DNA of 63,650 nucleotides, the filler included, from Malassezia furfur (Eukaryota): NCBI GenBank assembly GCA_052055015.1. It is 13 parts of 13 records of this genome, joined end to end, with 100 filler letters (N's around TTAATTAATTAA, not from the genome) between each part and the next. Parts side by side here need not be neighbours in the genome. Positions count along the whole stretch, not along the records: positions 49,321 to 54,051 come from JBQJIT010000653.1; 12 more parts are not named here. The stretch is one strand, 5' to 3'. The notes below the pieces were generated by a model. The model had not been told where the DNA came from and searched no databases. It worked only from the letters and a program-made list of their open reading frames with translations. The position numbers and the translations under genes are program-made. This document shows, piece after piece, positions 634-53,097 of this stretch. The first letter of the stretch is position 1. Each line of letters begins with the position of its first letter.

Positions 634-1543
634 ATGCCCTCGATCAAGATTGCGCCGAGTGTCCTGGCGTCCGATTTGGGCAACCTAAACGCAGAATGCA
701 AGCGAATGATGGAATGCGGGGCTGACTGGCTTCACATGGGTATGCAGCACGCGCTCACGCAGACATCATGGACGGCCACTTTGTCCCCAACATTGTGCTG
801 GGCGCTCCCGTGCTCAAGTCGGTCTACCAAAACGTGCCAGATATTTTCATGGACTGCCATATGATGGTTTCAGAGCCCGCAAAGTGGATCAAGGATATTG
901 CAGACGCAGGTGGCGCATCATACACGTTCCATCTCGAAGCGACAGGTGCGCCCCACTGACCACTTACCCAGACGACCCACTCGACGTCGTGCGGCAGATC
1001 AAGGCCGCCAACATGCGTGCTTCGGTCGCCATCAACCCGGGCACACCTGCGAGCGAGATCTCGGACGAGCTCGGGAAGGCCGTGGACATGATTCTCGTAA
1101 TGACTGTCTGGCCCGGCGCGGGCGGGCAAAAATTCATGAAGGAGTGCATGCCCAAGGTCGCCGAGCTCCGTGCGCGCTTCCCAGACCTGGACGTGGAGGT
1201 GGACGGCGGCGTGGGTCCCAAAACGATTGACCGCTGTGCGGACGCGGGTGCGAACGTGATTGTGGCTGGCACTGCCGTGTTCAACCACTCAGATCCCAAG
1301 GCCGTGATTGCCTTCCTGCGCAAGCAATGCGAGCGTGCGCAGGAGCGCATCCGCGAAGAGCGCGAGATGCTTGCGCGGGGCGAGTCGCTCAGCGACCTCG
1401 ACAAGAACAAGGGATACACCTCCGGTTCGGTCACGCCCTGGTCGCATCCGCGAGTATACATGCCTCGGCGCCGCAGCTCGGGCACAAAATCGCCCCCTAC
1501 TGGCAAGTTTGGCAGCAGCATCACCATGCAGCCCATCCATTAG
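634..1543 (+). CDS. RPE1: Ribulose-phosphate 3-epimerase
   Basis: KIAPSVLASD, WLHMDIMDGHFVPN, YTFHLEA, LVMTVWPGAGGQKF, VEVDGGV, GANVIVAGTAVF; introns 740-762 (23 nt) and 946-971 (26 nt) join three ORF-track pieces. Confidence 0.95.
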
Positions 1544-4977: not shown

Positions 4978-5168
4978 CCGGGCGCCGCATAGGGGCGCTC
5001 CGTGCGGGGCTCGCCGCGCTTCGTGAGGCCGCGGAGAAGCTGCATGCGCGCGGCGACGGCGGAGCAGAACAGGCCGGCGGGCGCTTCGCGTGCGGCGGCG
5101 GGCGTGCGGTGGAATTCGGCCGAGGAAAAAAGTGTGGGGCTACGCGGGGGGGCCGGACCCAGGGCTAC

Positions 5169-7407
5169 CTACGCATCCACGCAATAGCGCGCGTTCAGCG
5201 CCGCGACCTCGCGGCACAACCAGCTCCACGTGACGCTGCGTTCGCCGGCGTGGGCGTACGCGGCGTAGGGCAGGCCGTACGCGCCGCGCCCGGCGCCCAG
5301 CACGATGGGGCGGCTCGGCGTGCGGTGTATTGGCCGTGGGGCGGCGGCCGAGCGAGGCGGCGATGCGCGTCTCCCACGCGCGCAGCTCCCAGAAAAAGAG
5401 GAGGTGCGGCTGGATGAGCACGTTGAGTCGCCGGCTGCGCACGAGCAGGTACGCATCGATGAGTGTGATGTCGAGGTGCGCCATCGCGTACGCAATGACC
5501 ACCGTCGACGAGCGGCTGACGCCCACGCGGCAGTGCACCAGCACGCGGCCGCCGCTCACGCGCGCGCGCTCGACGAACTCGACGGCGTCGCACAGCGCGG
5601 CGCGCAGCGAGTCGGTGCCGTCGTCCGCGACGTTGGTCACGTTGTGCACCTCGATCTGCCCCGCGCGCCGCGCGGCGGCGAGCGAGTGGGGGTCGTCGTC
5701 GTCCTCGTCGGCGACGCACTCGCCGACGCTCACGACGTGCGTGATGCCGATCGCGCGCAGAAGGCGTGCATTGCGCGCGTGGCCCAGGTTGCCGAGGTAC
5801 AGGAACGGCAGGATGCGCGAGGGCAGACTGCCGTCAAAGTGCGCGTCGTCGAGCCAGTCGTCGTGCGTCGGTGCGGGCGCGCCGTGGACGCGCGCCTCGA
5901 CGGCGCGCAGCAGCTCGAGGTCCTTGCCGAACACGAAAAAGGGGCGCTCGGCGCGCAGCTGCAGCTGCAGGTAGGCCTGCACGAGGCGCAATCCCTGTGC
6001 GTGCATCAGGTAGGCGAGTGCAAACACGGACGACTCGGTGTATCCGTCCGCGCAGTGTATCAGCGCGCGGCGCGCGGTGCGGGGGTATCGGCAGTGCGCG
6101 GGCGAGACGTGCGCCTCGAGCCACGCGCACAGCGTGAGGATGTCGCGCGCCGCGCCGTCGGTCTCGTGGGGGTGCTGCCAGGACAGCGCGCCGGTGGGGC
6201 ACTCGAGGTGCGCCGTCGGGACCTGCACGCGGCGCCCGAGCGCCACGTCGCGGTCGAACGCGGCAAAGCTCTCGGCCGCAGAGCGCAGGAACGTCGTGGT
6301 GGGCGGGTCGTTCCCCTCGAACGCGTCGAGGCCGATGGAGAAGGTCGGCGCCCCCGTGTACGGCGCGTCCTGCGCCAGCGCAATGTTGGGCCGGAAGTCG
6401 CGCGAGGGGCCCAGGTATACGTTGGTATCGATGCGCGAGACGGACGCCATGCGGTACATCTCGTCCTGCTCGCGCTGCAAAAAGTCGAGCGCGTTCCGCG
6501 GCCGGCCCTGCGCGTCGACGGCCACCAGCTCGGGACAGGCGCGCTCGAGCGCGTCAAACGGCTCGGTGATCACAAACACGTTGTAGCGCAGGCCGCCGAG
6601 GCGCTCGACAAGGCGCTCGTGCCAGTACTGCTGCTGCGCGTACCGGAACGCCAGCGCGACGCTGCGCGCCGCATCCGTCAGACCCGCGGGGCTGTACACC
6701 ACGACGTCCGACACCATCGTGTAGTTGATGCTCTGCGCCTGGAAGTTGCGGGTGCTCACGCGCCGCGCCGCGCGCTGGTGCCGGAAGCGCGCGTCGTGCG
6801 CATCCACGGGGCCGCGCGCAGGGACGTAGCGCAGCGTCTCCTCGGGCGCCTGCGACGCGAGCAGCAGCGCCCGCTGCGCGGGCGGCGCCAGTGGCGGCTC
6901 CTCGTCGTTTTGTGCAGGGAGCTGCTTCGCACACGCCTCGAGCTCGTCGCCGACACGCACCACCGTCAGCCCACGGTAGGCCGGCGCCGGCACCACGCCC
7001 GACGCACTAAAGAAGCGCGTCTGGGCCGTGGGGCCGTGGTGCCCGCAGTATAGGTAGGGGAACACGACTTCGTGCGGCACATCGAGCGTGGTGTAGTCCG
7101 TGTACATCGCCGCAAATTGCGCCGCGCTCACACCACGCACGGGCGGCGCACTCGCGAGCCGCACCGGCACCGAGTCGGTGCTCAGGTCGCTCGTGTCGAT
7201 GGGGGGGTATACGTCGAGGTTGGCGTGGCGCAGGCCCCACGCGGCCGTGTCGCTGGGCGCGCCGGGCACCGAGGCACCGCACGGCAGCCCACGGGCGCCC
7301 ACGGGCGGCACCGAGGGCCGCGCCGCGTCGGGCACGGTGCGGGACGCACCGCTTGGCACGCGCCGCTCGCCCCGCACCTTGTGGGCGTCGGTCGCGAGCG
7401 GCGGCAT
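5169..7407 (-). CDS. PPS1: Pps1-like tandem dual-specificity protein phosphatase (apparent +1 frameshift near 3' end)
   Basis: Degenerate first motif IHCADGYTES and catalytic VHCRVGVSRS; GSLPSRILPFLYLGNL; family-like tail WSWLCREVAALNARY lies in another frame ending at 5169. Confidence 0.85.
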
Positions 7408-9954: not shown

Positions 9955-10435
9955 CGCGCCGCCGGCGCCGGCGCACCGCGACACGGCTGCGGTGCTCAAG
10001 AGCACGGCGCAGGCGGCGACGCAGGTGCTGTACGATATCGGTGTGCTCCTTGGGCTCACCGGCACACGCAATGCGCAGGTGCCGAGCTACGAGGCGTGGC
10101 GCAGCGGCGCAGCGCCCGGCGGGCCCGCCCGCCCGTCGCTGCTGCAGGCGCTGCTGCGTGCGCCGTTCAAGTTTGTGGCCCAGGTCGTGAGTGTGCTCGG
10201 GCGCCTGCTCCTCGACGCGACGAGTGTCGTGCTGCTGCTCAGCGTGCTCACGGCGGCGCTCCGGCGGCTGTCGGGGCGCGGCGACCCGTGGGTGGTGCTG
10301 CGGCTGCTGTCCCAGGCCAGCGCGCGGCTGCGCTTCTTCCAGGTGGCCGCGAATCGCCGCGCGGCGTTCCGTGCGCTGCTGACGAGCGCGCTGGTCGGCG
10401 GTGTGGTGATGGAGTCGCGGAACCATGTCTCTTAG
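9955..10435 (+). CDS. C-terminal fragment of an unidentified protein with a hydrophobic, probably membrane-anchoring segment
   Basis: Open from contig edge, GC3-rich codons, VLGRLLLDATSVVLLLSVLTAAL; no family recognised. Confidence 0.55.
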
Positions 10436-10634: not shown

Positions 10635-11386
10635 CTATCCGCGGAAAATCCACGTCTGGTCCGCGGTGACGAGCGCATCGAGCGGCACGTCCGTCTCGCC
10701 CGTCGGCACGGGCTCGGCGCTGATCTGCTCACGGAGCGCGACCGCGACTGGGTCAGCCGTGCACGTACCGATGTAGGGGACGCGCGCCTTGCGCTCCTGA
10801 GCGAATGCGTGCGCACGGCGGATGTAGCGGTCGTAGTACCCCTTGCCATGCCCGAGCCGACCGCCGTTCGTGTCGAACAGCATGCCCGGCACGATAATCA
10901 GGTCGAGACCGGCGCCGCCCGTGAGGAGCGCTGCATGAGTTAGGTGCGCACGTACCGTCTTCGCGCGCGGCGCCTTCGCGCAGCGGCGGGGGCTCGGCAA
11001 TGCCCCACTTGTTCGCCGTGAGGCCGTTGTCGAGTTCGTGGACGTCGTGCACGCGGAGCATCTGCATGTCTGTGGTGAACTTGTGGTCTTCCGACGCGCG
11101 TGCGCCCGCGCTCAGCGTCGAGAAGCGCGGCACGTACAGGCGCTTGCCGAGCGTGAGCGCGGCGCGGCTCAGGGCCCACGTGTCGAGTTCGCCGGAGGGC
11201 ATGCTGAGATAGATGCTGACGTTGTGCGCGTGCTGGAAGGCCGGGAGGCGCTGCACGGCCTCGCACACGGCGTGTGCTGTGTCAAGTGTGCGGCGTACCC
11301 TGCTCGTCCAGCGAGGCGCGCGGCACGCGCGCGAGCACCGCCGCGGCGTGCTTCCGGCACGCCGTCTTCGCGGCCGCCAGCGACAT
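10635..11386 (-). CDS. FAU1: 5-formyltetrahydrofolate cyclo-ligase
   Basis: SIYLSMPSGELDT, NKWGIAEP, LDLIIVPG, RLGHGKGYYDRY; introns 11277-11298 (22 nt), 10931-10955 (25), 10748-10768 (21). Confidence 0.93.
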
Positions 11387-11462
11387 GGTGCGTGTGCTTC
11401 ACGTGACTCGGGCTTGGGACGAGGCCTTCATGGACGTTGTGGGCCGCGGAGCGCACGGCACG

Positions 11463-14925: not shown

Positions 14926-16283
14926 CAAGCGCCGCGGCGAGCGCCGCGCCCGCGCCCGATGCGCACGCGCAGGCACGCAAGCTGCTGCGCTGGCACTACC
15001 TGGAGCCGAGTGCGCGCGTGGAGCTCGAGTCGTTCCTCGCGAGTGCGCCGAGCACCGCAGCGCCGCCCGCCTGGCTGGCGTCGGAGCTTGCGCGCGCGCG
15101 CGCGTACCGCACGGCGCGCAGCCGTGGCTGGCTTCCGAGCGACGCGGACCTGAAGCGCGTGGGCTACGATACGCTCGATGCGTTCCTCGACCGGGAGCTC
15201 GCGACGCTGCGCACTTCGCTCGAGGCCGGCGACGTCGGTCGGTGCACGCTCGAGGAGCTCGAGTCGATGGATATCCAAGAGCAGGCGGACCTGCTCCTGC
15301 TCCCCGTGTGGCAGCAGATGCCCGCCGAGGCGCGCGATGCAGCGCTGCTGCGTGCCGCGTTCGACAGCGTGCGCAAGCTCGGCTGGCGCGCGGGCTTCTC
15401 GGCGGGCTACCCTGGCTCGCCCGTGGCTTCGCAGCCGCGCGCGCGCGCCGACTCGGCGGCGTGGCGGCGGCTGCAGGAGGACGAGGCGGCGCGTGCGTGG
15501 GAGGCCTGGCAGGCGCTCACGCCTGAGCAGCGCCGCGCCGAGTGGGACACGGCGTGGCAGCAGCGCGACCGGTCGATGGTGTACGTGGACGATGCGCCGA
15601 CGACGCGCGTGCTGGGCAGCGTGGCGCCCCGCTGGTACACCGAGCCACAGCGCGCCGGGCAGCTGCAGTTCCTGCCCAACTTCCCCGTGCGCCTCGTGCG
15701 CAACTACACGCCCGCGGGCCAGGCCTACGACCCGTGGAAGGCGACGTTCCGTGTGCCGCTCAACGTGCACAAGCACACGCTGCGCTCCTTCCTGCTCGCT
15801 GTGTACGGTCTGCGCACGACGTGGGCGCGCTCGATGGTGTACCGCTCGCGCGTGGTGTTCAACGTGCAAAAGATGCGCCGGACGTACGGCCGCGACCGCA
15901 CCTTCAAGAAGGTCGAGGTGGGTCTGCTCGAGCCGTTTGTGTTCCCCGGCCTCTCGAAGGAGTTCCTGCGCACGCACCTCTTCTCGCAAGAGATGATGTA
16001 CGAGGAGCGCCGCATGATGCTCAAGATGACCAAGGGCCGCCGCTGGCGCGCGAGCAAGAGCATCCGCGGCCTGTCGGATGCGATCGACCGCAACTACGCC
16101 TACCAGAACGCCGGTGCGCCCGACACGCAGCCGGGCACCAAGCCCACCGCGCAGCTGCTCACGCGCTCGGGCTCGATCCCGACCGCGCGCCACGGCAACA
16201 TCCTCGCGGTGCTGGCCGAGCGCCGCAAGGAGCGCCTGGCGCGGGTGCAGCAGTATATCGACGAGCAAAAGAACAAGGCATAG
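14926..16283 (+). CDS. MRP20: Mitochondrial ribosomal protein uL23m with long N-terminal extension (5' truncated)
   Basis: FLPNFPVRLVRNYTP..YDPWKATFRVPLNVHKHTLRSFLLAVYGL...TFKKVEVGLLEPFVFP resembles fungal mito L23; frame open back to contig edge. Confidence 0.8.
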
Positions 16284-17341: not shown

Positions 17342-19185
17342 ATGGCGACGCGCCCCACGTCGTCCACGGGGCAGTCGTACCCCGCGGTGCTGGGCTACCA
17401 GATCGTCCAGCTGCTCGGCGGCGGCGGCTTCTCGCGGTACGTGCGCCCGCTCACCCCAGCGTGTTCCGCGCAGTGAATCCTCAGTCTGCCGAGCACCCCC
17501 AGGCCGCGGTCAAGGTCGTGTCGTACGCCTCGACGACGCACCGCCAGCCGGTCGACCGCCGCGCGCTCCAGAAGGAGGTGCAGATCCACAGCATCTTGAA
17601 GCACCGCAATGTGCTCGAGTTCCTCGGCAGCGTCGAGTACACCGCGTCGTCCGCCGCGCCGAGCAACTACGTGCGGGGCCTCTACATCCTGCTCGAGCTC
17701 GGCGCGGGCGGCGACCTGTTTGACAAGATTGGTACGTGACGGGCTCACAAGGCAGCGCCTGATGTCGGCGTCGACGAGGACCTCGCTCATTTCTACTTCA
17801 CCCAGCTCGTCTCCGGCCTCGTACGTCGCGCGCTCTGACCCAGACCTACATTCATACCCAGGGCGTGACCCACCGCGACATCAAGCCGGAGAACATGCTC
17901 CTCGACGCGCAGGGCAACCTCAAGATCGCCGATTTTGGGCTGTGCAGCGTGTACAAATACAAGGGCAAGGAACGCACCCTGCACGGCACCTGCGGCTCCC
18001 TGCCGTACATTGCGCCCGAGATGAATGGGCAGCCCTACCACGGTGAGCCCGTGGACGTATGGAGCTCGGGCGTGGTGCTCTTTGCGCTGCTCGTGGGCAG
18101 TACGTCGACCCACTCACACAGACACGCCGTGGGACGAGCCGACGAGCCGGAGCCCAGAGTACCGCGCGTACCTCTCTGGCGAGCTGCTGCGCCTGGACCC
18201 GTGGACGCGGATCGGCGGCGACGCACTGTGTACGTCGCTTGCTTCGCTAACCCAGCGCTGCTCCGCCGCATGATGCACCCCGACCCCAAGCGGCGCTCGT
18301 CGCTCGAGCAGATCCAGCGGCACCGCTGGTTCACGCGGCCCAATGCGCTGCTCACATCGGGCAAGTGCAACGACCCCGTGTCGCTTGCCGAGCGCCTCTT
18401 GCAGGGCCTCATTGTCTCTGGCGACGTGCAACTTGCGCTGCACAGTGACGGCCAACGCGCGCCGGTCCCGGAAAAGTACGTCGCCCGCTCACACAGCGTG
18501 TCGCTCTCGCAGCCGGAAGCGATGCAGTCGCGCTCGCTGGGCCTTGGGCGCGACGACGCGATGCCGTCGTCGACCGCGCAGCCGGCGCTGCACCCCCGCC
18601 GCGGCCTCGCCGCGTCGCAGTTCGCGCGGCCGTCGGCGACGCAGCTAGAGGACCACGCCGCAGAGTTTACCCAGGCACTGGGCTACTTGGTACGTGGCCT
18701 TCCTGACCCAGACGCAGTCGAGCGCTGTGCCGTACGGCACCGCCATGGCCGTGCACCTCACGCGCTTCTACTCGGGCGACGAGCCGCCGCACGTCGCTAC
18801 GGCGCTCACTGCGGCGCTGGAGCGGCAAAAGGCGCAGTTCAGTGTGGAGCCGTTGGGGCAGGACACGGAGCTGCAGGAGGCATACGAGGACATGGAGCTC
18901 GGTACGGACGGCGAGACGCGGCCATCGCAGCCGCTCGCGGGCGCGCGCGGCGTGCGCATCCGCCTCGGACTCGTCGACCGGCGCAAGTGTGCGCTCAAGG
19001 GCGAGATTCGCATCGAGCGCCTCGCCGAGCTGCCCCCCGAGCTGGCGCATGCGGCCAAGGGCACCGCGCCGAGCTTCGTGTTGATGCGCCGCAGCAAGGG
19101 CAACCCGCTCGAGTGGCGCCGTCTATTCCGCAATGTGTGTGCGGACGCGGGCGTGCGTGAGCTGATCGCGCGCCCGGCTACATAG
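17342..19185 (+). CDS. CHK1: Checkpoint kinase Chk1
   Basis: GGGGFS, GGDLFDKIAPDVGV, HRDIKPEN, DFG, GNTPWDEP, C-terminal LTRFY and KGNPLEWRRLF; introns 17437-17459, 17732-17755, 17821-17843, 18100-18121, 18230-18255, 18476-18496, 18690-18711. Confidence 0.93.
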
Positions 19186-19189
19186 CTAC

Positions 19190-19725
19190 CTACCCCGATA
19201 CATCCCACCGCGTCTCGGGGTTTGCCAGGAACGCGTCGTATGCCTCGCGGTTGAACAGCGAGAGCTCCGTCTCGTTTTCTGCATGAGTGTGCACCACATA
19301 CCGATGCCCAGCTCCGCGAGCGGCGGGCCGTTTTCGTCGTTTTGCAGGATCCACTCGGGGTGGTCCAGGTTGATGATGAGGTTGGTCGTCTTGGCGCCGT
19401 GGGCGCGCGTGTACAGCTTGAGGGTGTCTGGGTCAGCGGCGCACGTACCAAGCTTGTCCGCGACACTGCGGTACGCCTTGAACGCCGGCTGCGTGCGCAC
19501 CGTCTCGACACACCGCGTGCGCAACTGCGCGGCATTGGTTTGCGTCAGGTCGACGTGCAGGACGAGCGGCTTCATCGTACGGTACTCAAAGCTCTTGATC
19601 ACGCGCACCGTGATCACGGCATCGGTGAGCGGACGCGCGCGATTCGTCTCGGTGTTGTCTAAGAACTCTGCCTGCGGCGCAAACGCGTGCGGCACAAACC
19701 CCTCGGTGCGCACCGCGTCGCTCAT
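19190..19725 (-). CDS. AIM29: UPF0538/DUF2340 family protein (Aim29/C2orf76-like)
   Basis: ITVRVIKSFEYR, DTLKLYTRAHGAKTTNLIINLD, GIENETELSLFN; introns 19428-19448 (21 nt), 19279-19301 (23). Confidence 0.85.
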
Positions 19726-20686: not shown

Positions 20687-22479
20687 CTACGCATCAGACG
20701 ACCCCTTGATCGCGCGCGCGGTGCCAACGTGCGTGGCATGCACCTTGCTCGCGAAGCGCAGCGAGCACAACGTCTCGCCGAGGTGCGCTGCGAGCGGCGA
20801 GAGTGCAAGAAGCATCAACCTGGTCATTAGCACGAGGCCACGTACGTCTTGGCATTGCCGCCCAGGCTATGCTTCAACAGCCAGGTCAGTGTCGAGTTGC
20901 GGTATGGCACGTGGCGAGCGGCGCCCGCGCCACCGAGCGCGCCGATCACGTCGGCAAGCGCGCTGAGCGACTTGTTGATGCTCTGTGCCTCCTTGAGGCG
21001 CGTCGGGTCGCTGGCGGAGCCGCTGGTCGCCAGGCGCTCCGAGCCGCTGGATGAGTCGGGGGGGGGGACGTACGCAAGATCCACGAGATTGAGCGTCGCG
21101 TCGCTCGTCTCGTTCGTCGTGACATTGTGGCCACGCACGCGCAGTAGAAACACACTGTGTGAGCGGCTCGACCGCTCGTTCATCAGTGTCGCGGCCACCT
21201 GCCGCCGTTTCTTGGCGCGTGTAAGTAGCGCAAAGACATCCTGTGGGCCGTTTAGCGGCACAGTGACCGTGTTGGTGACGGTGGTGTGGTGCTCCGTGTG
21301 CCGCACTTCGTGCTTCTCCTTGTCCGACGCCGGGGTGCCAAGCAGGTCGTAGATGTGGTCGAGGTAGATCTGCAGCATCTGTGCCTCGAACGTGTATGTC
21401 CATCCCTGCGCGCCGAGGCGCTCGGCGACGTCCCACAGCATGTGCATCGCGCGGGGGATCAGGCCCGCCGATGCACTTAGCGCCGACGTCGCTTCGGGAC
21501 CGTCCGCACCACCCTCGAGCGTGTGCGTTTTGCCCGAGCCCGTTTGGCCATACGCAAAAATGGTTGTGTTGTAGCCGTCCAGCACGCTCTGCATCAGGTC
21601 CGCGACCTCGGCAAAGACGTCTTCCTGCGAGGCCTGTGGCCCAAACACATGGTCAAACGCAAAGTGGTGCTGGCGCACGGTCGGTGCACCTACCGCGTTC
21701 TCCGTGTGCGCTGCGACCTCGATCTGGGTATGGAGCATCGTGTCAGGGAAGCGGATGGTGGCCTGTGCGCCGTCGTTACGCGGCGGGCGCACACGCGCAT
21801 ACACACGCACGTTGCCCCGCAGCTCCTGCACCTGGTTGTGCAACTTGCGGCGCAGCGACTCGGCTGCGATCAGATCGTGTTCAAGCTGCGCATTGCGCTG
21901 CTTCGTCGCCGCGACGTCGGCGTGCAGCGCATGTGCGCGGGCGTCGTAGGTCGCCAGCTGCGCCTGTAAATCGGCGACTTGCGCGGCGAGTCGCTCGTTC
22001 GTCGCGGCCAGGCGCGCGTGTGCCTCATCCCGCTCATCTGCAGCTTGGCGCAATGCATGAATCTCATTGCGCTGCTGCGTGATTTCCGCACGCAGCGTGC
22101 GCTGCGCCTGCTCGTGCTCGGCACGGAGCACATCGACCTCGTAGTCGTTGTAGCCGCGCCAGGCCGGCTCGGGCGCGCGGTTTTCCTGCGCGAGCTTGCG
22201 CTCGTTGCGCAGCGCTTCTTCCATTTCGCGTGAGCGTTGCGTCTGCTGCGCGTGTGCCTTGCGCTCCTGGTCACGTAGTTGTTCGCGGCGCCGCGTCTCG
22301 AGCGTGACCAGGTCGTGCATCGCGGCGCGCTGTGCATCATCGACGGGCTGTGCGCGCATCGCGATGCCGCGTCCGGCATCTCCTGTGGCTCGACTTCGCT
22401 CCGGATCGGCGGCGACCCGCATGCGCTTCGGCGGGACGCGCGGATGCATCCCCGGCGGCACCGTGCGTCCAAGCGGCAT
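20687..22479 (-). CDS. KAR3: Kinesin-14 (C-terminal motor)
   Basis: Coiled coil then RRKLHNQVQELRGNVRVYARVRP, YGQTGSGKT, NERSSRSH, LVDLAGSER, HVPYRNS; introns 21047-21073 (27 nt), 20820-20845 (26). Confidence 0.93.
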
Positions 22480-22633: not shown

Positions 22634-23019
22634 CTATGGCGCTGCGGTGGACGCAGTGGTGGGCGCGTCGGGCGTGTCCTTAAAATTCTCTGGGGTCGCG
22701 TCGACTGAGTGAGTGTGGGCCACACGTACCCCAGGGCCGCTTGCACATGGGGCACAGCGGTTCGTGCTTTTCCGAGAGCCATTTGTTGATGCAGTGTAAG
22801 TGGAACTCGTGACTGCATTCGCCAAAGGCTGCGTGAGCAGCGGCGCAACGTACCGAGGGGGCACGCGTCGCCCGGGTCGCGGCATGCGCCACACACGCCG
22901 TCAAAGTAGTTTTGGCAAATCCCACACACGTCGTCTGGATCGCGCACGTCCCAGTCTGTGTGAGTGAGCGACGTACGCCAATAGGCAACCGGGTGCCACT
23001 TGTGCAGGTGCACCTTCAT
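22634..23019 (-). CDS. APC11: Anaphase-promoting complex RING-H2 subunit Apc11
   Basis: MKV..KWHPVAYWHWD, DVCGICQ..FDG.C..C..PGD.CPL, GECSHEFHLHCI.KWL, CPMCK; introns 22956-22976 (21 nt), 22829-22853 (25), 22705-22729 (25). Confidence 0.93.
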
Positions 23020-31766: not shown

Positions 31767-33253
31767 TTAGGCACGCTGGTAGAAGCGGCGGTACTTGTCG
31801 TCGACCTTCTCGAGGTAGTACGAGCCGGGCCACAAGTCCTCCAGGCTGCCCTTGGGGTCGTGCGCAACGGCGTTGTGCGTCTCCTCACGCGTCTTGAGCG
31901 CGTCGACGTAGGCGTTGCACGGCACGACCTGCATCGCAGCAAGGCGCTCCTTCAGGCGCAGCGCGTCGTGAATCTTCTGCGTAGAGCCAGCGACGCGCAC
32001 GACAAAGAACGACGCGGCACAGCCGGAGCCGAACGAGTACAGGAGAATGCGCTTGCCCTGCAGCTCATCACTGCTCTTGTTCGAAAGAATGGAAGCCAGA
32101 CCGCCGTACAGCGAGCCGGTGTACATGTTGCCGCAGCGGCGCACCGTGTCCATACCAGGCTCGAGCATCTCGGCGGCCATCGGCTTGGTGAGCGCCACGA
32201 ACTGCTTCTCGAGGTCCTTGTTCGTGATGGTTGACCGGCGCTCGAGGTCTTTGTACTCCTTCGGCACCTCGGCGTACTTCTCGTTGGTGGGGTCAGCAAG
32301 GTAGTCGTTGTAGAGCTGCGTGTCAGAAAACACCACGTACCAGACGCGAGAAGCCCTTCTGGACAAGCTTCGCGTAGGGCGAGTGCATCGCGACAAAGTC
32401 GACGTCGGCCAGGCTAAAGTTGGCGCGCGCGTCGCTCGACGTCTTGCTCTTGTTCAACGGCAGGCCCTTGGACTCGGCGAGCTTGCTGTACTTATTCCGG
32501 AATGCGTCGTACGCCATGTCGACCGAGCCCAGGTAGGTCTGCAGCGTCTCGGGGCCGTCCACGGTGGGGTATTCGGACGTGAGGTCCGGCTTGTAAAAGT
32601 CCCACGCATTGGCCATGTGCGTGCCGTGGATCGCTGCGTGTGAGTCAGGGATACGTACGCTCCACCACCAGCGGCGCGTTCGGGCCAATGAGCATAGCAA
32701 CAGAGCCTGCACCACCAACCGGGCGCGCGCTTCCCTCGGCGTAGATGGCAATGTCACCGGCGAACACGATGGCGTCGCGGCCGTCCCAGGAGCTGGACTC
32801 GACCCAGTTGACCGCGTTGAAGAGCGCGGCAGTACCACCGTAGCACGCGTTCTTCGAGTCAATGCCCTCAATGTCCGTGTTGCCGTGCGGCGCAAAGAGC
32901 TCCATGAGCATCGTCTTGACCGCCTTGGACTTGTCGATGATCGTCTCGGTACCGACATCGAGACGGCCGATCGACTTGGGGTCGATGTTGTAGTTCTCCA
33001 TCAGCTTCGACACGGCTGCATGTGAGTGGCGCGCACGTACCCGACAGCGCAAACGAGTTGATGTCCTCGCGGTCGTCCGTGAAGGCCATGTACTGCTGGC
33101 CGAAGCCGATGGTGTATTTGCCCTTCGACACACCATCAAACTCCTCCAAGTCTGCCTCGGAAATGCACTAGATGGTCAGACGACAAGACGTACGCGCTTG
33201 GGGAAGTACACTTCCATGGCTTTGATGCCAACGTTCTCAGGTCGCGAGGTCAT
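31767..33253 (-). CDS. ERG13: HMG-CoA synthase
   Basis: [52 protein letters not shown]; introns 33168-33193 (26 nt), 33016-33040, 32634-32658, 32316-32340 (25 each). Confidence 0.97.
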
Positions 33254-39716: not shown

Positions 39717-41411
39717 CTATTGCAATCCCCGTGCGCGGTACAACAAAATGTACGCCACCGAATCCTCGCCGCCGCCATAGAGCGTCTGGATCTTGTCCGA
39801 GTTGACCACCGCGACCTTGTCGTCGTTGAAGTGGTACCACTCGTTCGAAGGCAGCGTGTCAAACTCGTCGCCAGACGCATTCTCCTTGCGCACCCACGAC
39901 ATGTAGTGCCCGGCGTCGGCCGCCGCGCCCTTGTGCGTGACGATCGCCGCAAGGTCGTACAGCGCGCTCGGGTTGCACCCCGTGTCGCTCTTCAGCTCGG
40001 GGTCGATCAGCGCCTCGATGTCGGCGCGCTCCTTAGCCCGCAGCGCACGCTCCTCGTCGTCGGTGATCGCGTTGCCCTCTTGCCGCTCGGGCGCGTCGGC
40101 AGGCGCGTCGGCGGGCGCATCGCCCGACGCGTCGCGCGCCTTGGACGCGTCTTGCTGGCGCGCCTTGACGCGACGGCGCACCTTGGCGCGCTCCTCACGT
40201 TCCTTCGCCACCGCCTTGACCTTCTGGCTGAGCGGCGCGACGCGCTGCTTCAGGTCGTCGGTCGCAAACACGCTCGCGTCCAGCTCGAGCGGGAACTTGA
40301 CCTTGCGCATAATCTTGGTTTTTCTGCGTGAGTCGCGGCGACGTACTTGTTAATGTCGCGGCGCCAGTAGAAGCGCACAAAGTGCACCGACAGGTACATG
40401 GGGAGGCGCGCAATGCGGCTCTGCTCGGTGTACAGCGCCGTGCGGCCGAGGTGCTCCGAGTGCTTTTCGATCTGCTGCGTGAGCGTCTCGAGGATGCCCG
40501 CGGTCATCTCGTTCGTGGTGTTCGAGATGTTGCACTGCAGCACCAGGAACGGATCGCTGTGCTGCGTCTTGGGCTCCTCGGGCGCTTCGGGAATCGAACG
40601 TCTGATCGGTCAGCCGCGCGCCACGTACTCAATCGACATGTGCCCGGTAAGGTACTCTTGCACAAAGCGGTCTTGACCGCCGTTCAGCGCGAGGTAGGCG
40701 CCGAGCGCGTTGAGGATGCGCACGTACGCCTCCTCGGCGTCCTGCTGCGCAAAGCCGCCGCCGCCCTGCGCCATCTCGGCAAACTGCGGCGCGACCTTGC
40801 GCAGCAGCGTCAGGAACACCAGCGGCGGGAACGCCTCGGGCGCCTTGTTCATCTCGCGGAACAGGTCGCGCAGCGACGCCGTGAGGCTCGCCTCGCCGTC
40901 GCTCGCACCGACGCTGCCCGCGTACTGCTCGAGCGCCGTGTTCAGCTCGGGAATGCACCGCAGCACCTGGAGCGTCGAGTTCAGATAGCACGTATTGCCC
41001 AGGTTCACAAGCCCGACCTTGTGGCCGCTCTGTGGTAAGCCCATATACACGTACAGCCTGCGCAATCTCATCGTCCTGCATGTCTTCGAGGAACTGCACG
41101 GGCTTCGCCGGCGCCTGCGGCAGCGCACCTGCGGCACCCAGCACCATAAACTGCTGACCCTGTGTGAGCGCCACGACGTACCGCACGCGCGCCAATCTTG
41201 GACAGGTCCGTGTCGTCCTTGAGCAGACCACCCTTGACCATCACCTTCTGGCGCTCCGGCGGGACGTGCGTCAGCTCGGCAATCGCGTCCTTGAACGCGC
41301 GGCCCTGCGCACTTGTGTCGAGCTGCACATCGTACTGCGTCAGACAAACACGCCACGCACCACTTTCCCGTTGTGCTTTACTTTCACCGGAACCGTGCTC
41401 ATCTTGGCCAT
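39717..41411 (-). CDS. UBP6: Proteasome-associated deubiquitinase Ubp6/USP14
   Basis: UBL VPPERQKVMVKGG, GLVNLGNTCYLNS, QQDAEE, VTHKG..ADAGHY; introns 41335-41360 (26 nt), 41160-41181 (22), 41030-41054 (25), 40602-40628 (27), 40324-40346 (23); start may be 41402. Confidence 0.96.
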
Positions 41412-46177: not shown

Positions 46178-46315
46178 CGCGGTGCGCAGATAAGGCGTGC
46201 CTCCTCGTCCCCAAATCATGCGCCTACCGCACCGCTCGCCCGATTGGCAGATTGGTCCAAGCGTCAAGGGCGATCGGGGCATGCAGGGCGTGATTTGTGT
46301 GTCCAGATTGCCACC

Positions 46316-47308
46316 ATGGCCCAACGCTTGTTCGTCGTCGGAGGAAACGGGTTTGTCGGTAAGTGCTGCCCGCTCACACAGGCTCGGCGGTGTGCCGCAC
46401 GGCACTTGCACGCGGATGGGAGGTGCAGAGCATTAGGTACGTTCCTCGCCGCAGCCGCTGACCGCCAGCGGGAGCGGCCGTCCGTTCCGCACGCCCAAGG
46501 GCCACGCCCCGGCATGGACCGAGTCGGACAAGATGCATTGGCACAAGGCCGATGCACTGCATCCCGACCAATATAAGGAGATCGCTGCGTCGTGCACGGC
46601 CGCCGTCCACACCATCGGCATCCTGATGGAGTCCAAGTACAAAGGCAGCAAGGGCTCGGCTGCCGGCATCTTCCAAGGCCTCGCCAAGGGCTGGGGGCTC
46701 GGCGACAAGGGAAACCCGCTCGACACTCAGGATGCACTGACCTACGAAAAGATGAACCGCGACTCGGCGATCGCGGTTGCCTCGACGTTCGCCGAGGTCC
46801 AGCAGGCAAAGCACAACAACGAAGTGCCATTTGTGTACATGTCGGCAGAGGACATTATGCGTCCGATCATTTCGCCGCGCTACATCTCGACGAAGCGCGA
46901 GGCCGAGGTTGCGATCGCGACCATCGCCGAGCAAGAGTTCCCGCCGATTTTGCGCGCGGTGTTCATGCGTCCTGGTACGTGGTCCGGCGCTCACACACAG
47001 GGTTGATGTACCACCCGCACAACCGTCCGTGGTCGACGGTGCCCGCAACGCTCATTGATGCATCCAACTACATGCACCGTCTGCACCGCAAGTGGAAGCT
47101 GCCGATCCCGTCGCCGGCCGACATCCTCGCGAGCCGTGCGGTGCCGCAGGCGCTGCATCCGCTGTCGGCCGCACTGACCACGCCGCCGCTCCATGTCGAC
47201 ACGGTTGCGCACGCGGTGCTTGCAGCAATCGAGTCGGAGCATGTGCGTGGTGCACAAAATGTCGAGGCAATCCGCCAGCTCGCCGGCTGGCCCGCCCAAG
47301 TTGAGTAG
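46316..47308 (+). CDS. COQ11: Atypical SDR / NAD(P)-binding protein, Coq11-like
   Basis: VVGGNGFVGSAVC, VHTIGIL, TYEKMNRDSA, FVYMSA, RYISTKREAE, RPGLMY; introns 46359-46381 (23 nt), 46437-46468 (32), 46975-47000 (26). Confidence 0.85.
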
Positions 47309-47474: not shown

Positions 47475-49220
47475 ATGTCGCTCTGGGCCGGATTCACCTG
47501 GTACGTACGCGTGTACCGAACTAATGCAGCTATGTGTCCAAAGGTACGCTACATGCGCCCGGGAAACTCACCGCACAGAGACGTATACGTTTGTGCCCAC
47601 GAACCGCGGCGACCCACCGCGCCCGCTGCAAAAGCTTGTGATCGACCGCAAGACTAGCACGCTGTCGCTCCAAGGTAGGTGTTGCGCGCACTCACATGCC
47701 AGACACCGACTCGCTTGATGTGCCAAAGTACGACAAGCAGTTCATTGTGCACGGGATCCTCGGTGTGCTGTCGCTGCACACCACCGACTTTATGGTGGTG
47801 GTGACGAACCGCAAAAAGGTCGCGCATATCCTTGGTGCCAACGTGTACCTTGCGACCGACTTCCGCATGCTGCCGCTCAATACAGAGGCGAACCCGACGC
47901 TGCTGCGGAACCCGATCGAGAAGCGCCTGCTGAGCTTGGTGAAAGAGTCGCTCTACTCTGGCCCGCTGTACTTCTCGTACGAGTACGACGTGACGAGCTG
48001 CCTGCAGCGCCAGGTCAAGCACGAGTTTGGCCCGGATGGCTCGAAGCTGCCCATGTGGAAGCGCGCGGACGAGCGTTTCTTCTGGAACTACCACCTGCAG
48101 GAGCCGCTCATGCGGCATGCGCAGGACCTGAGTGCATTTATCATGCCCGTCATGTTCGGCTTCCTGGAGGTGAAGGTCGCCCAGATCCACCAGCGCGCGT
48201 TTGTGCTCGGCCTGGTCGCGCGCCGTTCGCGCTACCGTGCCGGGACGCGCTACTTCTCGCGCGGCATTGACGCCGAGGGCCATGTGAGCAACTACAACGA
48301 GACGGAGCAGTTTGTGCTGGTCGATCCGCCGAGCGGCAGCGTGCCGACGAGCATGGAGGAGATCGAGGGCAAGGCGCGCATGAGCTACGTGCAGACGCGC
48401 GGCTCGGTGCCCGTGTTCTGGGCCGAGGTGAACAACCTGCGCTACAAGCCGGACCTGCTTATCCCCGCGGATCCCCGCACGGTGGTGAGCGCCCGCCGGC
48501 ACCTGGACGAGCAGGTGGAGCTGTACGGGAAGAACTACCTGGTGAACCTCGTGAACCAGAGTGGCTACGAAAAGCCCGTCAAGGACGCGTATGAGCAGGT
48601 GGTCCAGGAGGTGAGCCATCCGCTGGTGCAGTACAACTACTTCGACTTCCACCATGCGTGCAAGGGCATGAAGTTTGACAATGTGCAGCTGCTCATTGAC
48701 CAGCTTGAGCGCGAGGGCCTGCGCCCGGACGACTACTTTATGCTCGACACGAACGGCACGCCGCAGGTGCAGCTGCAAAAGTCGGTGGTGCGCACCAACT
48801 GCATGGACTGCCTCGACCGTACCAACGTGGTGCAGAGCATGCTCGCGCGCCTCGTGCTCAACGAGCAGCTGCGCTCTGTCGAGATTTTTGGCGCGGGCGA
48901 CCGCGTCGAGGACCACCCCGCGTTCCTGTACCTCTTCCGCAACGTCTGGGCGGACCATGCAGACGTGATCAGCAAGGCGTACTCTGGCACGGGCGCGCTC
49001 AAGACCGACTTTACGCGCACCGGCAAGCGCTCGATGGAGGGTGCGCTGCAGGACGGGCTCAACTCGCTCACGCGCTACGTCAAGAACAACTTCTTTGACG
49101 GGGCGCGCCAGGACGCCTACGACCTGTTCACCGGCGCGTGGGACTCTGCGACGCAGACACCCGAGGTGGTCGTGCAGCCGTGGACGGTGCGCATGATGCC
49201 GTGGCTGCTGTGGGTGTCGC
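47475..49220 (+). CDS. SAC1: Phosphatidylinositol-4-phosphate phosphatase Sac1, 3' truncated
   Basis: RRSRYRAGTRYFSRG, QTRGSVP, RTNCMDCLDRTNVVQ, YSGTGALKTDFTRTGKR; introns 47501-47529 (29 nt), 47544-47578 (35), 47675-47702 (28). Confidence 0.96.
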
Positions 49221-49380: not shown

Positions 49381-50541
49381 ATGGGCAAGCGGGGGCGCGG
49401 CAAGCTGCGCACGGCGCTCGCGAACCACCACGCGCGCGTGCAGCAGCGGCGCGCCGAGAAGCAGCATGCCGAGGCCGTCGAGGCCGCAGGCAAGCGCCGC
49501 ACACGCGCGCCGCACACGCCGCACGCGCCGCAGCGCGCGCCGCGGCACGTCCAGCCGTTCGCGCGCGACGATACGGTGCTGCTCGTCGGCGAAGGTACGT
49601 GCGCCGCTCACCAGGCAACTTTTCGTTCACGCTCTCGCTTCTACGGGAACCCCACAGCCACCCGCCGAGCCAGCTGCTCGCGACCAGCCTCGACACCGAG
49701 GAACAGGTGTGCGAAAAGTACCCTGACGCACGTGCGATCCTCGCCGAGATCCGGGCGCGCGCAGGGCCGTGTGCGGACCGCGTGCTGGCGTTCGGCGTGG
49801 ACGCGGGCGCACTGCACAAGTGCGCGGCGGTCACGGGCGGCAAGGGCGCCGCGCCGCGCCGGTGGAGCAAGGTCTGGTTCGGCTTCCCCCACGTCGGTAC
49901 GTTGCCGCACGACTCACGCAGGCGCGGGGCACAAGGACGAGCAGCGCAACGTGCTCGCGAACCAGCTGCTTATCCTGCGGTTCCTCGTATCGGTTGCGCC
50001 GTACCTGACGCACGGCGCGGTGCCGACGTACGCCGCGAACGTCAAAAAGGCGCGCAAGGCCGAGAGCGACGACGAGGACGACGACGAGGGCGACGACGAG
50101 GACATCGACGGCGGCAGCAGCGACGCGTTCGCGGCGCCCGCGGGCGACGCGACGTGGCGCCCGCTCGCGCCGCCGGCGCGCCAGGGCTCCGTGCTGATTA
50201 CGCTGCGCAACGCCGCGCCGTACACGCAGTGGAACGTGCCGATGCTCGGCAAGCGCCTGCGCACGGTGCTGCCCGCGATCGCGGCCGCGGCGCCCGCGCT
50301 GCCGAAGGCGATGCGCGCGCCGAGCGTGCAGGACGTGGAGCGCAACGACGCACAGTATACCCTATGGCGGAGTTTTGCCTTTTTCCCCGAGGACTGGCCG
50401 GGCTATGCCCACCGGCGCACGATCGGCTGGGTCGAGGGCCTGAGCACGTCGCACAACGAGGACCTGCTGCGCACCGCCACGGCCGCCGGCGCGTGCCGCA
50501 CGTTCGAGCTGGGCCTCGGCGCGCCGGCCGCCTCCACTTAG
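49381..50541 (+). CDS. BMT5: 25S rRNA m3U methyltransferase Bmt5 (DUF2431)
   Basis: After splicing 49595-49614 (20 nt) and 49897-49921 (25 nt): [42 protein letters not shown]. Confidence 0.9.
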
Positions 50542-52148
50542 AAGCCCCAGTGGAACTGGGCGCCGCCGCCGCCAAACTGCCCGCCGTGCTGCCGCGCAAA
50601 CTGCTGGAACGCGGCGTTCTGGAACATCTGCTGGAACGCGTCGCCGTGCGCGTACGCGTCGCCGTAGTTCGCCTGCCCGCCCGTCGGATCGTTCGGGTCG
50701 TCGCCCTGGTCGTAGCGCGCACGCAGCTCGGCGTCGCCCAGCACGCCAAACGCCTCGTTGATCTCGGCCATCTTCTCCTGGCTGCCGCCCTTGTCGGGGT
50801 GGTGCTCGCGCGCGAGCCGGCGGTACGCCTTCTTAATCGTGCGCTCGTCCGCGTCGCGCGCCACCCCGAGCGTCTTGTAGTAGTCCTTGCTCTTCGACTG
50901 CTTCAGCAGCTTCTGCGCCTTGACGAGCCGCGCGTGCACATCGCGGTCGTGGTGCGAGTGCACAAACGCGTCGTTCAGCGCCGCGACCGCCTCGTCGTAC
51001 CGCCCGTTCGCCAGGTGGTCCTCGCCGCGTGCCACCAGCGCCGGCACACTGTGGGGGTCGCGCGCCAGCAGCTTGTCGCAGAACGGCATCGCCTTCTTGA
51101 ACAGCTGCTGCCCGCTGTACGCGCGGCAGTACAGCGTCTCGAGGTCCGCGACAAGCGCGCTCTGCGCCGCCGCATCGCGCACGCCGCGCGGCAACAGCGG
51201 CTCGCCGTCCGCGTCGGGCGCCTGCGCGTCCGCGAGCACCTGCTGCACCTCGTCGAGGACCGTCGGGCCGCCGACCTTGGGGCCCTTGAGCGCACTCACG
51301 ACGGCCGTCCAGCTGCCGGCGTCCGCAAACTGGTGCGCCTTGCCGAGCGCCTTGCTGATCCTGCGCAGCTGCTTGTGCGCCTGGCGGCACGCGCGGTTGT
51401 CGGGGTCGTTGTGCAGGCACGCCTTGAGGTGCGCGAGGCCCGCGCGCTGCATCTGCGAGTCGTACGTCCCGAGCACGTAGTAGGAGAGCAGCGCGAGCCG
51501 CCGCTGCAGCGCCGGGCTCGGCGCAAGCGCCGCGACGCGGTTCCAGTCGCTCACGGCGTCGTCCAGCGCGCCCTGCGCGACGTGGCACGCCGCGCGGTGC
51601 CGCCGCGCCGCGAGGTCGTTCGGCGCGTCTTTGAGCAGCTCGCTGGCGAACGCAATGCACTCGGTCGCATGCCGCGCGTCGGTCGGCAGCTTCGCGAGGC
51701 GCGCGCTCAGCTTCGCGTCGTGCTGCACCGCGCGCTTCAGCGCGTCGGCGTCGGCGTCCGCCGGCGCGTGCGCCGCGAGCGCCGCGAGCACGTCCGCCGC
51801 GCGCGCATACTCGCCCTCTCGGCGGAGCAGCTTGGCCTCCTGCACGTACGCCTTTGCGAACGACGGGTGCCGCGCGCGCGCCGCCTCGAGGTCCGCGAGC
51901 GCCGCGGCGGTGCGTCCGAGCGCCTGCTGCGCCGTGGCGCGCCGGAAGTACGAGAGGTATGCGTCGGGGTCCAGCGCAATCGCGTGGTCAAACGCATCGA
52001 GCGCGCCGGCGTAGTCGGACGACGTCAGCGCGGTGTTTGCGGCGCGCAGCCACTCGGACACGGAGCGTGCCTCCTCGGCACACACATCCAGCACGCCCGC
52101 AAGCAGCAGGGCGAGCGCGACCAGCGCGAGCCGCACGAGCGTCTGCAT
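50538..52148 (-). CDS. ER-luminal TPR/J-domain co-chaperone (DNAJC3/P58IPK/Jem1-like)
   Basis: Signal peptide [21 protein letters not shown] repeats, [22 protein letters not shown]. Confidence 0.92.
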
Positions 52149-52273: not shown

Positions 52274-53097
52274 ATGCCCGCCGACGCTCCCCCGCCGTAC
52301 ACGTACCACTCCATCTCGCAGGACGAAGAGGCACAGCTCGCCGACAGCGACGCGTTCAAGGTCGACGTCACCGTCGAGCAGAGCGACCCAGAGGTCCGCG
52401 CGCTGTTCGTCCGCAAGGTCTACAGCGTGCTCTTCCTGCAGCTGCTCGGCACCGCCGTCGTCGCAGGCGCCATGTCGACGTCCGGCGCCGTCGCTTGGGT
52501 CCAGCAGAAGTACGCCACACACACTCACGCAGCTCGTGGTTCCTGTTTGTGCCGCTCATCGGCTCGCTCGCCTCGCTCGGGGCGCTGTACTGGAAGAGCC
52601 AGTCGCACCCCGCGAACCTCGTGCTCCTCGCGCTGTTCACACTGATGGAGTCGCTCCTCCTTGGCACCGTCGTCTCGGTCGTGGACGTCGCGGTGCTCTT
52701 CAAGGCCGTCGTACTCACTACGCTCGTGTTTGGCGCCTTGACGGCCTTTACGCTACAGACGCGCTACAATTTCGAGTCGCTCGCATCCTACCTGTACTAT
52801 GGGCTGATGCTGCTTGTCGGCGTCGGGCTCGTGCAGCTCTTTTTCCCGTACAACCACACGTTCGAGCTGCTGTACTCGGTCGCGGGGTGCGCCATCTTTT
52901 CGGGGTACATTTTGTTCGACACCTACCTGATCCAGCAGCGGTACGTTTCTTATTTTTTGGGCTAATCCAGTTTGTCGCCGGACATGTGGGTGCTTGCGAA
53001 CGTGTCGCTGTACCTCGACGTGGTCAACCTGTTCCTCTCGGTGCTGCGCAGTACGTCGAATGCTCACGCAGTCCTCAACGCCACTTCGGACGACTAG
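52274..53097 (+). CDS. BXI1: Bax inhibitor-1/TMBIM family protein
   Basis: [48 protein letters not shown]; introns 52510-52532 (23 nt), 52941-52970 (30), 53051-53071 (21). Confidence 0.92.

Follow-up and report, generated by a model that had tools for sequence, protein, structure and literature searches.

The 20-nt segment GTACGTGCGCCGCTCACCAG at bases 49595-49614 (plus strand) of the window, the whole 63.6-kb stretch of Malassezia furfur DNA that was analysed, is, as judged from its splicing signals and from the protein obtained on its removal, a genuine U2-type GT-AG spliceosomal intron, and it is predicted to be the shortest in the window of a modular intron design of the M. furfur clade. 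Its predicted branch adenosine lies at intron position 16, and no intron among the 46 kept in the window (0/46) requires a branch A before this position. The best explanation, which we regard as moderately probable, is that this is a genuine shortest modular intron and that the bound at 16 represents the minimum helix spacing of this spliceosome.

What sets the minimum size of an intron is an active question, which includes 2026 work on the shortest animal and ciliate introns. In most lineages with ultra-short introns the branch site is too degenerate to be located, whereas here it is nearly invariant, and therefore the distances from the 5' splice site to the branch and from the branch to the 3' end, and with them the limit, can be read directly from the DNA. 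These distances point to the spacing between 5' splice site and branch as the limiting one, as in human biochemistry, at one third of the human value.

The BMT5-like gene and its 20-nt intron

The short intron interrupts a gene for a BMT5-like methyltransferase, the parts of which are as follows.

49381..49594, plus strand: exon 1 of the BMT5-like 25S rRNA (uridine-N3) methyltransferase gene; the N-termini of P0007, P0008, P0023 and P0026 align with it
49595..49614, plus strand: intron 1, 20 nt, GT-AG, phase 1, predicted from signals, Pfam and relatives
49595-49600, plus strand: 5' splice site GTACGT of intron 1, within the 20-nt intron
49601-49605, plus strand: linker of intron 1, 5 nt
49606-49611, plus strand: branch box GCTCAC of intron 1; predicted branch A at base 49610, position 16
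49612-49614, plus strand: CAG of intron 1, directly adjoining the branch box
49615..49896, plus strand: exon 2, starting (G)NFSFTLSLL; PF10354 positions 7-88
49897..49921, plus strand: intron 2, 25 nt; predicted branch A at position 20, 5 nt before the intron end
49922..50541, plus strand: exon 3 including the stop codon; PF10354 match
50538-52148, minus strand: convergent DnaJ-TPR gene, the end of which overlaps the BMT5-like stop

The host gene starts with the ATG at 49381, and exon 1 ends in ...DDTVLLVGE followed by one G of a glycine codon. When the 20 nt are spliced out, the junction G/GC gives LLVGEGNFSF and the protein continues as NFSFTLSLL. The LLVGEGNFSF-type N-terminal motif, which would bind the methyl donor, was obtained only once the 20 nt had been removed. 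Both the reading frame and the conserved protein were restored by this removal, as seen with Pfam and in the alignment of relatives. Exon 2 alone matched the Pfam BMT5-like profile PF10354 at positions 7-88 with 52.6 bits, and exon 3 alone matched it at positions 92-168 with 38.1 bits (cut-off 24.7 for both). Because the match of exon 2 begins at profile position 7, the six missing positions correspond to the LLVGEG that ends exon 1.

The search with exon 3 gave 27 relatives, and the named matches include '25S rRNA (uracil(2634)-N(3))-methyltransferase [Malassezia cuniculi]'. In the protein alignment, P0007, P0008 and P0023 (Malassezia cuniculi) read unbroken through ...DDTVLL(V/I)GEGNFSF..., and these represent either intron-less genes or spliced models. 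The ORF-called protein P0004, from a relative that is 62% identical, starts just before NFSF, which is what an intron at the corresponding site in that relative would produce. Similarly, ...FPHVGAGHKD is unbroken in the relatives across intron 2, and profile positions 88 and 92 flank this intron. Thus, the claim of the sequence-only reading that removal of the 20 nt at 49595-49614 gives LLVGEGNFSF was borne out by the G/GC junction, by PF10354 and by the relatives.

The signals within the 20 nt were found to be complete. The GT at 49595-49596 and the AG at 49613-49614 are U2-type termini, the 5' splice site GTACGT is the organism's own consensus as seen in the 46 kept introns, and the branch motif GCTCAC places the predicted branch A at A16. 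Adenosines occur at positions 3, 16 and 19 only, and A16, as the sole internal one, is the only possible branch nucleophile, in agreement with the earlier placement of the branch A at position 16, 4 nt before the intron end. All modules of this intron abut, with lengths of 6 + 5 + 6 + 0 + 3 = 20.

The common plan of introns in the window

Gene models were made from the 63.6-kb window alone with a Viterbi finder that combined codon log-odds with a donor matrix and had no branch term. Usable models were obtained with a maximum intron of 70 nt; with 250 nt, antisense frames were joined by false long introns, and finding introns by codon bias in short flanks was too noisy and was dropped for the Viterbi finder. 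Of the 52 candidates, 49 came from the finder and 3 were in-frame introns included on account of their signals; 46 of the 52 were kept. Six candidates at the ends of models (15010-15029, 10079-10104, 5140-5172, 5314-5377, 11397-11456 and 46297-46363, one of which is 20 nt) were dropped as gene-end artefacts without consensus donor, YTNAY motif or homology; any of these, if real, would fall outside the common intron plan. A 28-nt version at 41154-41181 was tentatively replaced by a 22-nt version in view of the first-AG rule and of the human USP14 sequence. The window has a G+C content of 66% and masked N blocks approximately every 4.9 kb, and an Rfam scan of it found no snRNA and no other RNA family.

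The kept introns measure 20-35 nt with a mode of 25, and 41/46 measure 20-29 nt, so that a length under 30 nt is the norm within the window. When 79 exon translations were scanned with Pfam, the profile coordinates ran end to end across many predicted introns, as in ribulose-phosphate epimerase (1-31, 33-91 and 96-198), DUF2340 (1-53, 56-94 and 97-120), kinesin (1-297 and 299-325), DAHP synthase (9-35 and 39-257) and, likewise, HMG-CoA synthase and APC11. The 27-nt intron 21047-21073 was confirmed by its splitting the invariant kinesin DLAGSE motif, and its read-through appeared as a 9-residue gap.

All 46 kept introns (46/46) share one plan, that is, GTACGT, a linker of 5-16 nt, RCTNAC, 0-4 nt and YAG. 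In the donor, A was found at position 3 in 42/46, C at position 4 in 43/46, G at position 5 in 46/46 and T at position 6 in 41/46 introns. The branch box has R in 40/46, C in 45/46, T in 46/46, A in 46/46 and the final C in 40/46, and the 3' end is CAG in 45 introns and TAG in 1. The weak signals of the ciliate and myxozoan class of ultra-short introns were not found; the signals of the window introns are nearly invariant. A single YTNAY was present in 41/46 introns, with 5' distances of 16-27 and 3' distances of 4-8, and the remaining 5 were ambiguous, so that the site with a 3' distance of 4-8 was taken. In 7/46 introns, among them those at 49595 and 19428, no adenosine other than the predicted branch A occurs between the 5' splice site and the AG. 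With the predicted adenosines (n = 46), the distance from the 5' splice site to the branch was 16 in 7 introns, 17 in 5, 18 in 10, 19 in 6, 20 in 8, 21 in 3 and 22-27 in 7, and the distance from the branch to the 3' end was 4 in 1, 5 in 30, 6 in 2, 7 in 6 and 8 in 7.

Several of the introns at distance 16 are multiples of three without a stop codon, and therefore each of the seven was checked separately.

49595..49614, plus strand: 20-nt intron, BMT5-like gene; A16 at base 49610; Pfam and relatives
10748..10768, minus strand: 21-nt intron, 5-formyltetrahydrofolate cyclo-ligase gene; A16 at base 10753
17732..17755, plus strand: 24-nt intron, CHK1; A16 at base 17747, 8 nt before the intron end
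18476..18496, plus strand: 21-nt intron, CHK1; A16 at base 18491
19428..19448, minus strand: 21-nt intron, DUF2340 gene; A16 at base 19433, the only internal A
22956..22976, minus strand: 21-nt intron, APC11 gene; tandem CTCAC at A12 and A16, A16 at base 22961
53051..53071, plus strand: 21-nt intron, Bax-inhibitor/lifeguard-family gene; A16 at base 53066

All seven carry the full GTACGT and RCTSAC. The 7 read-through residues of the intron at 10748 correspond to a 7-residue gap against human MTHFS (3hxt), and the MTHFS orthologues on two metagenome contigs, L002 and L004, are intron-less with contiguous DNA at this site. The intron at 17732 contains an in-frame TGA, and its flanking exons match Pkinase 23-88 and 113-193; the two matches are separated by a 21-residue exon. 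The 7 read-through residues at 18476 are missing in 8/8 other species and are kept in the public M. furfur model P0037; those at 53051 are missing in 4/5 homologues (P0029, P0030, P0033 and P0034). At 19428 the DUF2340 profile segments 1-53 and 56-94 abut across the intron. For the intron at 22956, read-through residues 2-55 stand against human APC11 2-46, which leaves 9 extra residues and gives partial support. On these protein comparisons, all seven introns at distance 16 have protein-level or frame support, which for 22956 is only partial. The earlier observation that the five 21-nt introns and the 24-nt CHK1 intron at 17732 also have the A at position 16 held in every case, with CTSAC in all six. 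However, A16 in all the 21-nt introns restates the modal 3' distance of 5; the informative ones are the introns of 20 and 24 nt, whose 3' distances are 4 and 8, respectively.

Introns of 21, 24 and 27 nt without an in-frame stop are invisible to ordinary gene finders. The public M. furfur models P0037 and P0028 keep 7 spurious residues at such introns, and neighbouring conserved blocks are missing from them. A 144-residue read-through of a CHK1 exon was 100% identical to 'chk1 [Malassezia furfur]' (P0037), and for the lifeguard-family exon the identity was 84% with a protein of M. furfur and 75% with one of M. brasiliensis; these matches place the window in the furfur clade of Malassezia. For these skin yeasts, which are of medical relevance, annotation calls for a model that takes the branch site of very short introns into account.

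The lower edge at position 16 and its possible causes

The window was also scanned independently of the annotation for the donor GTRYGY followed by CTNAY at a distance of 10-40 and then by YAG. At distances of 16, 17, 18, 19 and 20, the scan gave 9, 4, 10, 7 and 8 matches, respectively, against 0.2-0.7 per bin in Markov simulations. The 9 matches at 16 were the seven introns and two matches on the intron 10931-10955. At distances of 10-15 there were 8 matches, of which 6 were GTGYGY words nested 4-7 nt inside true donors and the remaining ones were the second site of the intron at 22956 and an antisense chance match at 24142; an independent match with a good donor was not found at these distances in the scan of the window. 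When normal, gamma and lognormal distributions were fitted to the 46 distances, 2.8-3.8 introns were predicted below 16, the probability of a minimum of at least 16 was 0.02-0.06, and that of none below 16 together with at least seven at 16 was 0.001-0.005. A gamma fit with free origin placed this origin at 15.55. The abrupt onset at 16 in the 46 introns exceeds chance; these statistics, made post hoc on 46 introns of one 63.6-kb window, are indicative only because the tests were chosen after the data had been seen.

A metagenome scan with a PMT protein gave 31 loci, and introns of the window's type were found only in L001/L002, which are one organism with a GC of 0.67, and in L004/L005, with a GC of 0.57. 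L002, L004 and L005 together contain about a dozen short introns, in which the smallest distance is 17 and none lies at the boundary; below 16 these contigs gave only a single nested word and two isolated ones, 17-18 nt long.

The alternative that survives best is that the limit is soft. The value of 16 would then be the edge of a 46-intron sample, branch adenosines at 13-15 or introns of 18-19 nt would occur rarely across the genome, and the boundary would reflect deletion pressure acting against a gradually falling splicing efficiency with no hard threshold. The small sample and the post hoc statistics favour this reading, as does the lognormal fit, which still allows a minimum of at least 16 with P = 0.06. 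Furthermore, in the annotation of M. restricta described in PMC6473144 the shortest allowed intron was put first at 20 and later at 15, which suggests that very short introns were expected. However, a pile-up of 7/46 in the lowest bin was obtained in only 0.1-0.5% of the smooth-fit simulations, and the lack of independent good-donor matches at 10-15 in the scan also argues against a soft limit, which we consider rather unlikely.

A further alternative is a floor near 12. For two introns the sequence-only reading had noted a CTGAC at A14.

946..971, plus strand: 26-nt intron, ribulose-phosphate 3-epimerase gene; CTGAC at A14 and CTTAC at A21; profile positions 33-91 and 96-198 flank it
32634..32658, minus strand: 25-nt intron, HMG-CoA synthase gene; overlapping CTGAC (A14) and CTCAC (A18)

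Both were found to have a second site downstream, as had been claimed, at A21 in the former and at A18 in the latter. In all, 4 kept introns (22956, 32634, 946 and 52941) contain an additional YTNAY at A12-A14, against 0.88 expected from shuffled linkers (P = 0.009). If the A12-A14 sites were used, always or in alternation, and the 3' splice site lay 9-18 nt beyond them, the floor would be lower than 16. Apart from the excess itself, it speaks for such use that three of the four upstream motifs are perfect CTSAC and that other fungi commonly have 9-18 nt between branch and AG. On the other side, all four introns keep a downstream YTNAY that obeys the rule of the 41 single-site introns (5' distance at least 16, 3' distance 4-8), and a rule-conforming downstream site arising four times by chance is estimated to be rare. 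In addition, the upstream sites would have 3' distances of 9-18, whereas no single-site intron exceeds 8, and two of the upstream motifs are 4-nt tandem copies (CTCA-CTCA and CTGA-CTCA) of slippage-like appearance. A floor near 12 is thus held to be improbable.

It would also be conceivable that the bound lies on total intron length, at 20 nt or more, and that the 5' distance merely follows. The 21-nt introns cannot separate the two, as a 3' distance of 5 gives A16 by arithmetic. The separation comes from the 15 introns with 3' distances of 6-8, which could have 5' distances of 12-15 and still be at least 20 nt long, but none does: their 5' distances are 16, 17, 18 (four), 19 (four), 20 and 23-27, with the minimum at 17732. 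The 31 introns with 3' distances of 4-5 have 5' distances of 16-25 and the same floor of 16. In the lone 20-nt intron the 3' part is cut to 4 and the 5' distance is still 16, and in the 24-nt intron at 17732 the 3' distance is 8 and the 5' distance is again 16. The lack of a negative correlation between the 5' and 3' distances (Spearman +0.21, P = 0.16) also speaks against a length bound, and so does the human extract, in which it is the distance from 5' splice site to branch site that limits and not the length, as far as described in PMC6692369. Since a long 3' part does not bring the 5' distance below 16, the sequence comparison favours a floor on the distance from 5' splice site to branch and not on total length, and we give the length bound little credence.

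That 49595-49614 is a frameshifting assembly error or a pseudogene lesion and no intron at all is extremely improbable in the face of the full 5' splice site, branch box and CAG in standard arrangement, the exact rescue of frame and motif, and the beginning of the 62%-identical P0004 just before NFSF.

In the preferred explanation, that of a minimum helix spacing, the lower bound of 16 would be the minimum spacing between the helix at the 5' splice site (with U1 and later U6) and the helix of U2 with the branch site, leaving 4-5 unpaired nt between the two helices. This minimum would be made up of the footprints of the two recognition helices and a short linker, and the signals of Malassezia are long and strong (6 nt and 5-6 nt). 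The total intron length would then be bounded at 16 plus a minimal branch-to-AG distance of 4, which would account for a shortest intron of 20 nt.

That the floor is caused by steric strain in the lariat loop is a plausible hypothesis; it could equally result from the spacing needed by the recognition helices of 5' splice site and branch site, or by snRNPs, before catalysis. Candidate limiting steps are the co-occupancy by U1 and the branch-site factors, the geometry of the B complex and the lariat loop itself. The proposal in the sequence-only reading of a 16-nt loop as the steric minimum stood in part: 0/46 introns require a branch A before 16, seven are predicted at 16 and 16 + 4 = 20, whereas the excess of motifs at A12-A14 and the A10 of Stentor stand against it. 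We infer that the predicted adenosines are those used, that the edge is hard genome-wide and that a spatial constraint underlies it. For the spliceosome of this yeast, a genuinely hard limit of 16 nt from 5' splice site to branch, with a 5-nt free linker between two fully canonical and strongly conserved signals, is proposed tentatively and has somewhat less than an even chance of being correct.

Comparison with known short-intron systems

Very short introns in Malassezia are already known, and the 16-nt floor is a testable refinement of this knowledge. In M. sympodialis, 5350 introns with a mean of 30 bp were 99% supported by RNA-seq, as summarized in PMC5389616; the median intron of M. restricta is given as 30 bp in PMC9241646, and a review of the genus speaks of 'very short introns' (PMC7426719). 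These published introns, from the same genus and likewise GT-AG of ~20-35 nt, are described by means, medians and annotation settings in the portions of these papers that bear on introns. Neither the modular plan nor the constant spacing of 5 between branch and AG nor the 16-nt floor was found described in those portions of the Malassezia intron literature, supplementary figures aside; Supplementary Figure S8 of PMC5389616, on intron size distribution, may bear on the floor. The literature on Paramecium bursaria and on fungal intron loss gave nothing on branch geometry.

The lineages with introns below 30 bp named in a 2026 paper are ciliates, Microsporidia and dicyemids, and Malassezia is not named in its excerpted text (PMC13644364). 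Myxozoans and a dicyemid have ultra-short introns with medians of 22-27 bp, and they resemble the present case in introns of <30 nt, compact genomes and compatibility with U2-dependent splicing, according to the same excerpts (PMC13644364). In these animals, as far as described there, the conserved adenosines lie farther from the AG in longer introns, so that the variable part lies 3' of the branch (PMC13644364), whereas the window introns have a fixed 3' part, a variable 5' linker and strong signals in place of reduced ones.

In Stentor coeruleus, the branch is described at A10 in 15-nt and at A11 in 16-nt introns in the sections of PMC9505925 on branch position. The likeness, to the extent of these sections, lies in ultra-short GT-AG introns with a branch A at a fixed place, a 3' distance of 5 and an argument from steric clash in a tight lariat. 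The loop, however, is 10 nt against 16 here, and the branch region of Stentor is U-rich and has no strong consensus, while conservation at the 5' end is limited to GUA. The long and nearly invariant signals of the window introns may themselves set a larger minimum than in Stentor. Given the A10 of Stentor, 16 would be at most a lineage-specific value and no general limit of spliceosomal chemistry.

A parallel is provided by the human Smu1/RED study, in which the distance from 5' splice site to branch site, and not intron length, limits spliceosome assembly and activation in extract, at ~50 nt, in the passages of PMC6692369 on this point. As here, the distance between 5' splice site and branch is limiting, and the cause proposed in those passages is a physical constraint between the U6/5' splice site helix and the U2/branch-site helix. 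The geometry of the human B complex is stated there to need ~52 nt (PMC6692369), against 16 here, about one third, read from the sequence alone. Because 16 is far below the ~52 nt of the human B complex, the pre-catalytic geometry would have to differ. If the hard value of 16 is true, the minimum in this yeast would be about one third of the human ~50 nt, with a pre-catalytic geometry unlike that of human B complexes, and since Malassezia is transformable, with Agrobacterium-mediated transformation reported for M. furfur and M. sympodialis (PMC5654937), it would offer a tractable fungal system for defining the minimum of lariat formation base by base.

Public protein models at tiny introns

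At the tiny introns of CHK1 and of a lifeguard-family gene, splicing appears to be wrong in the publicly available M. furfur protein models, at the following window positions.

18476–18496, 21-nt CHK1 intron
17821–17843, 23-nt CHK1 intron, and the neighbouring CHK1 introns
52510–53071, lifeguard-family gene

The seven residues of the 21-nt intron are still present in the chk1 model (P0037), which lacks blocks common to eight other species such as the YIH.QG block, and this block is preserved under the 23-nt intron call. Similarly, the lifeguard-family model (P0028) still contains seven residues at the 53051 site and is devoid of a 12-residue stretch. CHK1 (17342–19185) was found to be the densest intron cluster in the window; seven introns of 21–26 nt lie inside a 1.3-kb span of this gene.

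Intron length, turnover and genome compactness

At least five introns were found to be multiples of three in length and free of in-frame stop codons.

10748, 21 nt
18476, 21 nt
22956, 21 nt (APC11)
53051, 21 nt
21047–21073, 27 nt (kinesin)

Thus, their retention would insert seven to nine residues, leaving the reading frame intact and introducing no early stop codon. Multiples of three accounted for 11 of the 46 introns accepted in the catalogue, against 15.3 expected under random length.

The window MTHFS gene was compared with orthologues on two related metagenome contigs.

10748–10955, window MTHFS, with introns of 25 and 21 nt
9400–9570 on contig L002, orthologue lacking both introns
9230–9400 on contig L004, orthologue lacking both introns

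This absence indicated that gain or loss of these tiny introns has taken place among closely related lineages.

At 50538–50541 the BMT5-like gene (plus strand) and the DnaJ-TPR gene (minus strand) converge, and their stop codons share a four-base overlap, indicating a compact genome. A candidate 14-nt micro-exon was noticed between two predicted introns of 29 and 35 nt (47501–47578); the SacI-domain gene may carry this micro-exon near its 5′ end, though homology gave no support for it.

Splice signals and second branch motifs

Second branch-like motifs upstream of the branch box were in excess (four observed, 0.88 expected), in these introns.

22956–22976
32634–32658 (HMG-CoA synthase)
946–971 (ribulose-phosphate 3-epimerase)
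52941–52970

In two of the four, the branch box is repeated in tandem at a 4-nt interval. The second motifs may have arisen by slippage, or may serve as back-up sites or decoys. The branch boxes are mostly CTCAC and CTGAC, and CTAAC is rare in the window (6 occurrences, where base composition predicts 60). Across the window the 5′ splice sites share the consensus GTACGT, and position +4 is C in 43 of the 46 accepted introns. Together, the donor, the scarce CTAAC and the CTCAC/CTGAC boxes suggest a possible co-variation of the snRNAs. Most fungi use GTAAGT or GTATGT as the 5′ splice site, whereas the window introns use GTACGT.
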